This document shows positions 13,442 to 15,154 of a DNA stretch of 64,000 nt, piece by piece. The position numbers and the translations under genes were made by a program. Each line of letters opens with the position of its first letter. The first letter of the stretch is position 1. This stretch comes from Escherichia phage vB_EcoM-Pr103Blw: sequence record MW481326.1. One strand, written 5' to 3'. Under the pieces are notes generated by a model. It saw only the letters and a program-made list of their open reading frames with translations, was not told the DNA's origin and did not search any database.

Positions 13442-13515
13442 GCACCTATAGCCCAACTGGTAGAGGCAGCAGACTTAGAATCTGCTCAGTGTGAGTTCGA
13501 ATCTCTCTAGGTGTA
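13442..13515 (+). tRNA. tRNA with anticodon TAG (Leu by anticodon) but short variable arm
   Basis: acceptor GCACCTA/TAGGTGT, 6-bp anticodon stem AGCAGA/TCTGCT, loop CTTAGAA, T-loop TTCGAAT, discriminator A, CCA encoded. Confidence 0.5.
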
Positions 13516-13525
13516 CCAAATTAAT

Positions 13526-13598
13526 GCAGGTGTAGCAAAATGGTTATGCGGCTGACTCTTAATCAGTAAGACGATGGGTTCAATTCCCTCCACCTGTA
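13526..13598 (+). tRNA. tRNA-Lys (anticodon CTT)
   Basis: Close paralog of the TTT tRNA at 12229; anticodon loop CTCTTAA; CCA encoded. Confidence 0.55.
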
Positions 13599-13607
13599 CC
13601 AAACAAT

Positions 13608-13680
13608 GGGGTCATAGTTTATATGGTTAAAATTCGAGTTTTGCAAACTTGGGAACCGAGTTCAATTCTCGGTGACTCCA
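13608..13680 (+). tRNA. tRNA-Ala (anticodon TGC)
   Basis: acceptor GGGGTCA/TGACTCC, anticodon loop TTTGCAA, T-arm CCGAG-TTCAATT-CTCGG, CCA encoded. Confidence 0.65.
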
Positions 13681-13689
13681 CCAATTAGT

Positions 13690-13761
13690 GCATCCATAGT
13701 TTAAACGGGAAAATTACAGTCTTCCAAACTGAGGTTGAGGGTTCGATTCCCTCTGGATGCT
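13690..13761 (+). tRNA. tRNA-Gly (anticodon TCC)
   Basis: perfect acceptor GCATCCA/TGGATGC, anticodon loop CTTCCAA, T-arm GAGGG-TTCGATT-CCCTC, CCA encoded. Confidence 0.7.
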
Positions 13762-13771
13762 CCAAATTAAT

Positions 13772-13844
13772 GCTCCTATCGTATAATTGGTTATTACGGT
13801 TGCCTTGTAAGTAACTTATCAGGGTTCGAGTCCTTGTGGGAGCA
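13772..13844 (+). tRNA. tRNA-Thr (anticodon TGT)
   Basis: acceptor GCTCCTA/TGGGAGC, D-stem CGTA/TACG, anticodon stem GTTGC/GTAAC loop CTTGTAA, CCA encoded. Confidence 0.65.
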
Positions 13845-13852
13845 CCAATTCA

Positions 13853-13938
13853 GAGGTCAAGTGAAAGACCGCTTTGAGTCAACTGAAGACCGTAACAAAT
13901 TCCACGGAGTTGAGTTAGCGGCACAACTCCAGACCTCT
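13853..13938 (+). ncRNA. structured element: outer 7-bp stem AGAGGTC/GACCTCT, inner hairpin GGAGTTG/CAACTCC; contains GAAGACCG motif
   Basis: Complementary arms read directly; located between tRNA-Thr and tRNA-Val. Confidence 0.35.
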
Positions 13939-13943
13939 TTCAT

Positions 13944-14015
13944 ACTCGCTTAGTTTATATGGTAAAACATCACCCTTACAAGATGAAGAAAAAGGTTCAA
14001 GTCCTTTAGTGAGTA
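13944..14015 (+). tRNA. tRNA-Val (anticodon TAC)
   Basis: D-stem GTTT/AAAC, anticodon loop CTTACAA, T-arm AAAGG-TTCAAGT-CCTTT, CCA encoded. Confidence 0.6.
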
Positions 14016-14019
14016 CCAT

Positions 14020-14094
14020 GTTCCAGTATCCCAATTGGCAGAGGATGCAAGCTCAAACCTTGTATTAGTGACGGTTCGAATCCGTCTTGGAACA
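14020..14094 (+). tRNA. tRNA with anticodon CAA (Leu by anticodon) but short variable arm
   Basis: acceptor GTTCCAG/TTGGAAC, anticodon stem GCAAG/CTTGT loop CTCAAAC, perfect T-arm GACGG-TTCGAAT-CCGTC, discriminator A, CCA encoded. Confidence 0.5.
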
Positions 14095-14102
14095 CCAATT
14101 TT

Positions 14103-14175
14103 GCAGGATTAGTTCAAATGGAAAGAGCAACAGTCTACGAAGCTGTTAATAGGGGTTCGAATCCCTTATCCTGCG
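14103..14175 (+). tRNA. tRNA-Arg (anticodon ACG)
   Basis: perfect acceptor GCAGGAT/ATCCTGC, anticodon stem ACAGT/GCTGT loop CTACGAA, T-loop TTCGAAT, CCA encoded. Confidence 0.65.
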
Positions 14176-14195
14176 CCAGATAAAAAGGTGATACT

Positions 14196-14438
14196 ATGCA
14201 AACATTAACAGTAGTTGAACATGAAAACTGTGAGAGTATTGAGTTTGTCAGGGTCATTGGTGTTGAACACCACATTTTCTTAAAAGTGGGATACTTATGT
14301 GACCCCGCTAGAGTAGAAAGATTTATACGTGATTGTTTTGGTGGTAGACATCTGAAGAGTGTTATTTTTGAGACAGTTTTACCAGAAGGTTTAGAAACGA
14401 ATAATAACATTTACCTCCTTACGAGGATTAGACAATGA
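14196..14438 (+). CDS. hypothetical protein embedded in tRNA array
   Basis: 80-aa ORF with RBS AAGGTG 7 nt upstream of ATG. Confidence 0.45.
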   Translation: MQTLTVVEHENCESIEFVRVIGVEHHIFLKVGYLCDPARVERFIRDCFGGRHLKSVIFETVLPEGLETNNNIYLLTRIRQ

Positions 14439-14992
14439 GATACTTAAAGTATGCTTCATGGATTTTCTTAGCTTTGTTAGAGCCATTTGCAGCAATCTTA
14501 GCAGTTATCTTAGCACCTTTTGTAGTTCCATTCTACAGTGAGAAGAAAGGACACTTACCTTTCGGGTTCAGATGGATGGAGACTTATGACAACCCAATTG
14601 ATGGTGATGCAGGTCATATCAAACGATGGGCTAAGATTAGAAAGATTGGTAAGCTTGGTGTCTACATGCAGAGAGTTGGATGGCTCTGGAGAAACAAAGC
14701 TTATAACTTCTCTTACCATGTGTTAGGAAGAGATGTAAAAGACGTTACTAAGTGGAAAGGTAATATCAACGTAAGTTCTAACCCTGAAGATAATCAGACA
14801 GGTTATCTCCTAATGTGGAACAGTAATGCTTGGGGATTATTCGCTTTTATCCCATCAATTAAAATCTTTGGTAAACAATTTTACTGGAGAATTTATGTTG
14901 GGTGGAAACTTAAAAGCGTTGTCCCAGAAGAAAGAGCATTCTCAAGGGAAAGAGTTATGTTGGCATTCTTTATTCATCCACTAAGAAAGTAA
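14435..14992 (+). CDS. putative membrane-anchored protein embedded in tRNA array
   Basis: 185-aa ORF, ATGA start/stop overlap with upstream ORF, N-terminal hydrophobic helix (WIFLALLEPFAAILAVILAPFVVPF). Confidence 0.5.
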   Translation: MRYLKYASWIFLALLEPFAAILAVILAPFVVPFYSEKKGHLPFGFRWMETYDNPIDGDAGHIKRWAKIRKIGKLGVYMQRVGWLWRNKAYNFSYHVLGRDVKDVTKWKGNINVSSNPEDNQTGYLLMWNSNAWGLFAFIPSIKIFGKQFYWRIYVGWKLKSVVPEERAFSRERVMLAFFIHPLRK

Positions 14993-15000
14993 AGATTTAA

Positions 15001-15073
15001 AGGGGATTAGTTTACAAGGTTAAAACCTCGGTCTTTGAAATCGAAGAAGTTGGTTCAATTCCAACATCCCCCG
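15001..15073 (+). tRNA. tRNA-Gln (anticodon TTG)
   Basis: anticodon stem TCGGT/ATCGA loop CTTTGAA, perfect T-arm GTTGG-TTCAATT-CCAAC, CCA encoded; position 1-72 mismatched. Confidence 0.55.
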
Positions 15074-15078
15074 CCAAT

Positions 15079-15154
15079 GCTCCATTACTCCAATTGGCAG
15101 AGAGGCCAGACTTAAAATCTGTGTTATGTATCGGTTCGAATCCGATATGGAGTA
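15079..15154 (+). tRNA. tRNA with anticodon TAA (Leu by anticodon) but short variable arm
   Basis: acceptor GCTCCAT/ATGGAGT, anticodon loop CTTAAAA, T-arm ATCGG-TTCGAAT-CCGAT, discriminator A, CCA encoded. Confidence 0.5.

Follow-up and report, generated by a model that had tools for sequence, protein, structure and literature searches.

The window examined here, a stretch of 64,000 nucleotides (nt) from Escherichia phage vB_EcoM-Pr103Blw (sequence record MW481326.1), carries an array of 26 transfer RNA (tRNA) genes, three of which have leucine anticodons (UAG, CAA, and UAA) and short variable regions. These three genes probably serve as functional leucine isoacceptors of the phage and follow the rare type I plan, in which a loop of 5–7 nt replaces the long variable arm; their charging is what we infer from sequence features.

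The tRNA array and its short-armed leucine tRNAs

All 26 tRNA genes identified by ARAGORN lie on the + strand, and the CCA end is fully encoded in 25 of them, with Ser(UGA) encoding CC. A megablast search with the tRNA region matched 371 phage records, the best being E. coli O157 typing phage 1 (KP869100, Felixounavirus; 98.2% identity, 99% query cover); next came wV8 and numerous Ounavirinae phages of Escherichia, Salmonella, Shigella, and Citrobacter. Judged by these matches, the window, with a G+C content of 38.9%, belongs to a Felixounavirus, a Felix-O1-type phage of E. coli/Salmonella. The whole array is kept in 233 phage records, and matching arrays are annotated in KP869100, KC139543, and Shigella phage Sf14. 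GenBank records already label all three genes tRNA-Leu, and the Felix O1 genome paper lists Leu TAG, CAA, and TAA at 78, 78, and 79 nt, respectively, with no comment on the arm (PMC3185647). The array, the three leucine genes, and the long-armed tRNAs that serve as internal comparators are as follows.

11128..16353, + strand: tRNA array of 26 genes, containing all three Leu genes (ARAGORN, Rfam)
11629..11716, + strand: tRNA-Tyr(GUA), 15-nt long variable arm, internal comparator (ARAGORN, segmentation)
13098..13187, + strand: tRNA-Ser(UGA), 20-nt long variable arm, internal comparator (ARAGORN, segmentation)
13442..13518 including CCA, + strand: tRNA-Leu(UAG), type I (ARAGORN, Rfam, segmentation)
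14020..14097 including CCA, + strand: tRNA-Leu(CAA), type I (ARAGORN, Rfam, segmentation)
15079..15157 including CCA, + strand: tRNA-Leu(UAA), type I (ARAGORN, Rfam, segmentation)
16181..16273, + strand: tRNA-Ser(GCU), 21-nt long variable arm, internal comparator (ARAGORN, segmentation)

Each tRNA was segmented using two landmarks, the position of the anticodon and the last 25 nt, which comprise the T arm, the acceptor strand, and the discriminator. Leu(UAG) consists of 74 nt plus the encoded CCA. Its variable loop is 5 nt long (UCAGU) and its D stem 3 bp; it has A9, U48, and A73, positions 13 and 22 are mismatched (C13·A22), and G1·U72 is present. Its T stem contains one mismatch, U50·U64, and its anticodon loop has A37. 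Leu(CAA), of 75 nt plus CCA, has a 6-nt variable region (AUUAGU), which shortens to 5 nt if U26–A44 is taken as a sixth anticodon-stem pair, and likewise shows A9, C13·A22, U48, and A73. Leu(UAA), of 76 nt plus CCA, has a 7-nt variable loop (GUUAUGU), A9, C13·A22, U48, A73, G1·U72, and a C27·U43 mismatch. The Rfam model RF00005 matches 13442–13515, 14020–14094, and 15079–15154 over model positions 1–71 with 57.3, 44.0, and 47.5 bits, respectively, against a gathering score of 29.

An earlier note on this DNA, in which the Leu coordinates end at position 73 (those of ARAGORN add the encoded CCA), had described the three Leu-anticodon tRNAs as short-armed with discriminator A, and the Ser and Tyr tRNAs of the array as long-armed, and had allowed that a re-parse might reveal hidden long arms. 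The description holds: by segmentation the variable regions are of 5, 6, and 7 nt, the ARAGORN cloverleaves of the three Leu tRNAs leave room for no extra stem in the variable region, and segmentation gives A73 in all three and arms of 20, 21, and 15 nt in the two Ser tRNAs and the Tyr tRNA. None of the three Leu tRNAs thus has the arm of more than 10 nt, forming a stem-loop, that defines class II (type II) tRNAs. The remaining 20 tRNAs of the array have variable regions of 3–6 nt by segmentation. Conservation of the three Leu genes is 95–100%, across more than 250 phage records for TAA and about 85 for TAG; because the genes and the array are conserved across phage records, the short Leu arms are not a chance feature.

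Two further members of the array have unusual ends. Ser(GCU) (16181–16273, + strand) has discriminator U73 in this parse, whereas G73 is an identity element of seryl-tRNA synthetase (SerRS), and the Sf14 paper marks it as 'inconsistent' with its isotype model (PMC12482277). One of the two tRNA-Met(CAU) genes (11384–11460, + strand) has a U1·U72 mismatch atop the acceptor stem and discriminator U73; an unpaired 1–72 is an initiator-like trait, its isotype scores in Sf14 are low, and it is a candidate elongator, initiator, or Ile2 tRNA.

Probable leucine identity of the three tRNAs

The three phage tRNAs were aligned segment by segment with leuW (UAG), leuX (CAA), and leuZ (UAA) of E. coli MG1655 and with the tRNA-Leu of phage T5. 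All of them share a D-arm layout specific to tRNA-Leu, in which the stem has 3 bp, positions 13 and 22 (A22) do not pair, and the loop reads A14-A15-Y-Y-G18-G19-Y-A-G; moreover, the variable region ends in G47-U48 and the discriminator is A73 in the phage Leu tRNAs as in leuW, leuX, leuZ, and T5. The anticodons are the same in the phage and E. coli sets, and G1·U72 also occurs in leuZ. The E. coli tRNAs differ in having arms of 13–15 nt, G9 and R13 (A9 and C13 in the phage), and G37 in leuW (A37 in the phage), with a body identity to the phage tRNAs of 48–62%. The Leu D-loop motif is present in all three Leu tRNAs of the array and in none of its 23 other tRNAs, and it was found in 34 of 1003 non-Leu tRNAs of viral contigs.

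In the identity set summarised for E. coli leucyl-tRNA synthetase (LeuRS), neither the anticodon nor the long arm plays a crucial part, and activity persists in variants from which the arm is missing (PMC9976931). All three phage tRNAs carry that set, namely A73, U8:A14, the A15:U48 Levitt pair, G18G19 in the Leu register, A20a, and the 3-bp D stem, and their anticodons UAG, CAA, and UAA are of the leucine forms (NAG or YAA). G3:U70 is absent in all three, the 3–70 pairs being A-U, U-A, and U-A. By established identity rules, the synthetases for Lys, Ile, Arg, Val, and Phe read anticodon bases that are absent from these tRNAs.

Isotype-specific covariance scores have been published for nearly identical genes, those of Sf14 (Mooglevirus), which match the window genes at 76 of 77 (TAG), 78 of 78 (CAA), and 78 of 79 (TAA) positions. 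In that 2025 study, which used tRNAscan-SE 2.0, the Leu model scored highest for all three (PMC12482277), as follows; the variable arm is mentioned nowhere in the paper.

Sf14 Leu_TAG: Leu 67.4; next, Ile2 65.7 (PMC12482277)
Sf14 Leu_CAA: Leu 49.1; next, Lys 36.1 (PMC12482277)
Sf14 Leu_TAA: Leu 60.2; next, Lys 54.2 (PMC12482277)

The lead of the Leu model is thus 1.7 (TAG), 13.0 (CAA), and 6.0 (TAA) bits. We also built hidden Markov models (HMMs) of our own, one per isotype, with the anticodon masked and the arm excised. A Leu model made from type II sequences only ranked second for CAA, second for TAA, and third for TAG, and a type I Leu model ranked first by 17–21 bits. Codon usage points the same way: when NrdA, NrdB, and ThyA of the window were compared with their E. 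coli orthologues, the codon faced Leu for 9 of 22 TTA, 7 of 17 TTG, and 7 of 12 CTA; Leu is the commonest partner of all three codons, at least as often as for CTT and CTG.

These results bear directly on the two alternatives raised by the earlier note, that the genes may be compact phage-type Leu tRNAs or that their identity may not be Leu, between which it had proposed isotype-specific scoring as a check; the scores of the near-identical Sf14 genes in effect supply that check and rank Leu first in all three cases. An identity other than leucine would mean that another synthetase charges the tRNAs and that UUR and CUA are partly recoded. The missing class II hallmark invites this view, as do the scores of Leu(UAG), for which Leu stands 1.7 bits above Ile2 and 4 bits above Lys in Sf14 (PMC12482277) and whose body is 71–73% identical to Lys(UUU) and Arg(UCU) of the array. 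Nevertheless, it is highly improbable: Leu is the top isotype model for all three in Sf14, the Leu D loop is confined to the three Leu tRNAs within the array, neither G3:U70 nor a long arm for SerRS is present, the synthetases for Lys, Ile, Arg, Val, and Phe need anticodon bases not present here (PMC9976931), TTA, TTG, and CTA face Leu most often in the orthologues, and host tRNA-Leu reads the same codons, so that any other identity would cause ambiguous decoding. It is the former alternative that agrees with the data, the Leu D arm, U48, and A73 being kept and the short-arm design recurring, with covariation, in many phages as described in the following section.

The anticodon loops show two further departures. 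That of Leu(UAG), CUUAGAA, has A37, whereas host leuW has G37, the m1G37 site of CUN readers; that of Leu(CAA), CUCAAAC, has C38, which breaks the A36-A37-A38 motif. This motif is required by MiaA. Phage Leu(UAG) and Leu(CAA) may therefore escape two host anticodon-loop modifications.

A recurring type I class in phages and Actinomycetota

In a blastn search, Leu(UAG) aligned, with no gap for an arm, to annotated tRNA-Leu genes of many unrelated phages, including the following.

Mycobacterium phage ET08: annotated tRNA-Leu of 76, 75, and 74 nt
Streptomyces phage StarPlatinum: tRNA-Leu of 76 nt, and one of 82 nt
Klebsiella phage FBKp34: tRNA-Leu of 78 nt, and a 92-nt type II
Enterococcus phage EFDG1: tRNA-Leu of 74 nt, and an 84-nt type II
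Lactobacillus phage Bacchae: tRNA-Leu of 74, 75, and 74 nt
Pseudomonas phage PN09: tRNA-Leu of 74 nt
Cronobacter phage CR9: tRNA-Leu of 75 nt

Short tRNA-Leu genes are thus found in phages of Proteobacteria, Firmicutes, and Actinobacteria, and the Ser and Tyr tRNAs in the arrays of those phages remain long. FBKp34 and CR9 show the short form in further families of enterobacterial phages. We pooled 164 unique short-loop Leu tRNAs of viral and cellular contigs. Of their 20 canonical stem pairs, 19 are paired in 86–100% of the sequences with 4–6 pair types (39–82% in shuffles), and the remaining one, T53–61, is an invariant G-C; pair 13–22 is formed in only 2%. A73 and U48 are each conserved at 92%. 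The viral short loops (n = 143) are mostly of 5 nt (114), with 20 of 6 nt, 7 of 7 nt, and 2 of 4 nt, and the window loops of 5, 6, and 7 nt fall within the class as defined by a 4–7-nt loop ending in U48 on a Leu D arm. The core also distinguishes the two plans: type I tRNAs have A9 in 100 of 135 viral and 20 of 28 cellular sequences and C13 in 105 of 135 and 24 of 28, respectively, whereas type II tRNAs have G9 in 68 of 75 viral and 94 of 100 cellular sequences and R13 in 67 of 75 and 99 of 100. All three window tRNAs carry the type I core signature, A9 with C13·A22. The three genes belong to a coherent, recurring type I class.

This class bears on the view that the three are decaying or pseudo-tRNA genes, stripped of the arm by deletion and retained as neutral passengers. 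The single mismatches U50·U64 in the T stem of Leu(UAG) and C27·U43 in the anticodon stem of Leu(UAA), and the weak predicted folding stability, would fit such decay. It is, however, very hard to reconcile with genes that are near-identical in hundreds of genomes of several genera, with a class that covaries in every varying stem and conserves A73 and U48, and with encoded CCA ends and Rfam scores far over threshold, and we give it scarcely any probability.

A second, rarer short-arm tRNA-Leu was also seen in viral contigs (CAA/TAG anticodons), with a type II-like core (G9/G13), the D arm 'tgatggaattggtatacgt', and the loop AUUUU or AUUCU. This G9/G13 design suggests that the arm was lost more than once.

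How common the short form is depends strongly on the method of census. Our first pattern, a Leu D loop plus A35 plus the T loop TTCGAATC, was derived from type I sequences and returned 94 short versus 35 long viral tRNA-Leu genes; the implication that viral tRNA-Leu is mostly type I was rejected as a selection artefact, since a Leu-agnostic scan, keyed on generic non-Leu tRNAs in viral contigs, gave 7 short versus 46 long Leu (13%), or 6 versus 30 in arrays of at least 10 tRNAs. Used as a contrast under the same pattern, the short/long counts are 94/35 for viral and 19/96 for cellular sequences (Fisher p = 2e-19). Thirteen of the 19 short genes in cellular sequences are solitary, each of them in Actinomycetota, including Glycomyces, Pseudonocardia, Nocardia, Mycobacterium, Amycolatopsis, and Bifidobacteriaceae. 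The other six lie on contigs with 4–25 tRNA genes in at most 8 kilobases (kb), which are probably mobile or viral. Dense arrays with type I tRNA-Leu in contigs filed as bacterial were seen in an Acidobacteriota metagenome-assembled genome (MAG; 25 tRNAs in 4 kb), Polyangiaceae (20), Asanoa (17), an Actinomycetota contig (13), and Planctomycetaceae (9 in 2.6 kb); such arrays probably belong to prophages or other mobile elements, or to viral contigs that were binned into MAGs. A literature search for short-arm tRNA-Leu in phages found no description, although its coverage was incomplete and an earlier description elsewhere is possible.

The earlier statement that bacterial tRNA-Leu is normally type II is right, with a known exception in Streptomyces (PMC6614811), and in our sample this type I exception extends from Streptomyces to Actinomycetota generally. 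Fan et al. (2019, NAR), who do not mention phages, described the tRNA-Leu(CAA) of S. coelicolor as a type I tRNA-Leu of a kind rare in bacteria, charged by its own LeuRS (PMC6614811). Like the phage tRNAs, the Streptomyces and other actinomycetotal type I tRNAs have a loop of the 5-nt class, a D arm of the form tagcccaaYtggcagaggc with A9, C13·A22, and A14A15, and A73, and their body identity to the window tRNAs is 67–80%. The Streptomyces tRNA, which is leucylated experimentally by a bacterial LeuRS, differs in being chromosomal, in belonging to a G+C-rich bacterium whose LeuRS has an LSD adapted to it, and in having C48. In the phage tRNAs position 48 is U, the loops are of 5, 6, and 7 nt, and the hosts lack any type I tRNA-Leu of their own. 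The body identity (0.67–0.80) was considered as proof of a shared origin with actinobacterial type I Leu and rejected as such, because the non-Leu tRNAs of the array reach 0.73. Nor is the short-arm design a general property of coliphage tRNAs, since the tRNA-Leu(UAG) of T5, which is also a phage-encoded Leu isoacceptor in the tRNA cluster of a virulent E. coli phage, is a type II tRNA of 85 nt with a 13-nt arm, G9, and G13. The tRNA-Leu of T4 is a further such isoacceptor in the cluster of a virulent E. coli phage. The T5 record also annotates, for each tRNA, whether an amber-anticodon swap gives a suppressor, as it does for tRNA-Leu(UAG), and offers a template for testing the Leu identity of the Felix-type tRNAs.

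Several protein genes accompany the arrays. Two, whose products have no assigned function, are embedded within that of the window and kept in relatives.

14435-14992, + strand: DUF7338 protein gene within the array (E = 1e-61)
15444-16178, + strand: DUF7217 protein gene within the array (E = 1e-88)

Directly upstream of the array, at 9546–10961 (+ strand), is an open reading frame of 471 amino acids that matches Pfam DUF2828 (E = 5e-29) and DUF7788 (E = 2e-42). Proteins annotated as DUF2828 also adjoin the tRNA arrays of Klebsiella phage FBKp34 and of Sf14, where the name given is 'RNA-binding protein', and the tRNA region of Streptomyces phage StarPlatinum contains a protein with the annotation 'Ro-like RNA binding protein'. 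The DUF2828/DUF7788 protein may be a Ro/TROVE-like tRNA chaperone or quality-control factor tied to phage tRNA arrays.

Proposed charging by the host enzyme and loss of the arm

In the proposed mechanism, the array would be transcribed and processed, after which the host LeuRS would leucylate the three Leu tRNAs; a bacterial LeuRS of the E. coli type would read A73 and the D-loop/T-loop core (A14, A15:U48, G18G19, A20a), and neither the anticodon nor the long arm. Bacterial TyrRS, the tyrosyl-tRNA synthetase, also binds the long arm. Because SerRS and bacterial TyrRS need that arm and LeuRS does not, only Leu could have lost it, and an indifference of LeuRS to the arm would explain why the Ser and Tyr tRNAs of the array keep theirs. 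For SerRS, the long arm is a major determinant (PMC9976931, PMC7609411). Once charged, the tRNAs with UAA and CAA anticodons would decode UUA/UUG and that with UAG would decode CUA/CUG, perhaps all CUN, and together they would supplement a CUG-tuned host tRNA pool for a phage of 39% G+C. Leucine codon use in the window is 27.5% TTA, 28.9% CTT, 11.6% CTA, and 14.0% CTG. E. coli uses CTG for about 50% of its Leu codons, and TTA, CTT, and CTA are used two to three times more by the phage than by E. coli. The Sf14 (PMC12482277) and Felix O1 (PMC3185647) papers take the codon-supplementation view too.

Two known arm-less systems frame this expectation. E. coli tRNA-Leu variants engineered to be minimal or to lack the arm (Asahara 1993/1998; Larkin 2002, summarised in PMC9976931) are Leu acceptors that rely on A73 and on D/T-loop contacts, and the phage tRNAs are expected to be charged because those variants accept Leu. 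Whereas the variants are laboratory constructs, the phage genes occur in nature and are conserved, and their core is changed further, at A9 and C13. Animal mitochondrial tRNA-Leu, a type I tRNA, shares the short variable loop and the use of A14 and A73 as identity elements (PMC9976931), but belongs to a separate, reduced system with its own LeuRS and often degenerate cores, whereas the core of the phage tRNAs is canonical for bacteria and the LeuRS that they must use is a bacterial one.

Several points weigh against charging by the host. Fan et al. (2019) reported that E. coli LeuRS (EcLeuRS) failed to charge the type I tRNA-Leu(CAA) of S. coelicolor, described EcLeuRS as charging type II only, and cited contacts of its C-terminal domain with variable-arm nucleotides 47f–47i (PMC6614811). 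No similar sequence is present in 5,426 complete E. coli genomes, so that the LeuRS of E. coli never had to serve a native type I substrate. The isotype margin of Leu(UAG) is thin, at 1.7 bits over Ile2, and our own HMM classifier is crude, calling 15 of the 23 non-Leu tRNAs correctly, for which reason it is taken as weak support. Minimum free energy folding recovered the cloverleaf for TAG and CAA and not for TAA, with z-scores of −0.16 to −1.78, values that are uninformative for A+T-rich tRNAs. The result of Fan et al. (PMC6614811) is in tension with the older E. coli arm-less work summarised in PMC9976931; it is possible that the failure of EcLeuRS is explained by C48 in the Streptomyces tRNA, the phage tRNAs having U48 and with it the A15:U48 identity pair.

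Two of these points would also suit a different role, in which the tRNAs are made and charged poorly or not at all by enterobacterial LeuRS, and act as decoys or sponges for tRNA-directed nucleases or tRNA-binding factors, or as uncharged-tRNA signals. The failure of EcLeuRS on the Streptomyces type I tRNA-Leu (PMC6614811) and the absence of type I tRNA-Leu from E. coli genomes are what such a role would predict, and there is a precedent in the tRNA-Tyr of T5 and T6, which neutralise the tRNA-cutting systems Retron-Eco7 and Septu (PMC13096335). We nonetheless think this role improbable: conservation extends to all LeuRS identity elements, to the encoded CCA, and to anticodon loops that are intact and carry three different Leu anticodons, those anticodons fit the Leu codons over-used by the phage, arm-less E. 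coli tRNA-Leu variants are active substrates (PMC9976931), and a pure decoy has no need of three isoacceptors. Host-charged leucine isoacceptors therefore remain the reading that we prefer.

As to why the arm is missing, neutral loss is the simplest reading. An adaptive one, argued by analogy and in our view rather unlikely, is that loss of the arm gave escape from arm-directed nucleases and from SerRS mischarging, a way out open only to tRNA-Leu, and would have yielded a host-portable adaptor spreading between phages of bacteria of different phyla; a corollary would be that enterobacterial LeuRS charges natural type I tRNA-Leu. Arm deletion would be an escape open only to tRNA-Leu because Leu alone of the type II isotypes has a synthetase that does not need the arm. 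Arm-directed cleavage is known for the other two isotypes: Retron-Eco7 and Septu cleave E. coli tRNA-Tyr in its long variable arm, an attack that the T5 tRNA-Tyr resists through its distinct variable loop (PMC13096335), and VapC52 of M. tuberculosis cuts the variable loop of tRNA-Ser (PMC13273310). In the literature looked at, no nuclease targeting the tRNA-Leu arm was found. Bacterial Schlafen, considered as a type II-specific nuclease by analogy with human SLFN11, was rejected, because RorSlfn5 cuts the anticodon arm of type I tRNAs.

If the host LeuRS simply charges the three tRNAs, they would be an ordinary, under-noticed variant of codon-supplementing phage tRNAs, and the annotation of the genes and the type I architecture in Streptomyces and mitochondria are already known. 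The interest of the finding lies in how widely, and with how little notice, the design has spread in phages, in its A9/C13 core signature, and in the testable conflict with the statement that EcLeuRS charges only type II, at a time when textbooks and recent literature treat bacterial tRNA-Leu as type II, with one Streptomyces tRNA as a rarity. The arm-less design is conserved in triplicate in a common phage family, which infects E. coli, Salmonella, and Shigella and finds use in typing and biocontrol, and recurs in phages of three bacterial phyla. The three tRNAs provide natural, easily tested substrates for the unsettled question of E. coli-type LeuRS and type I tRNA-Leu, as well as compact Leu scaffolds. 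The adaptive reading, if true, would contradict the current statement that E. coli LeuRS charges type II only, and the finding offers a concrete hypothesis in which tRNA architecture is tied to the phage–host arms race over tRNA cleavage.

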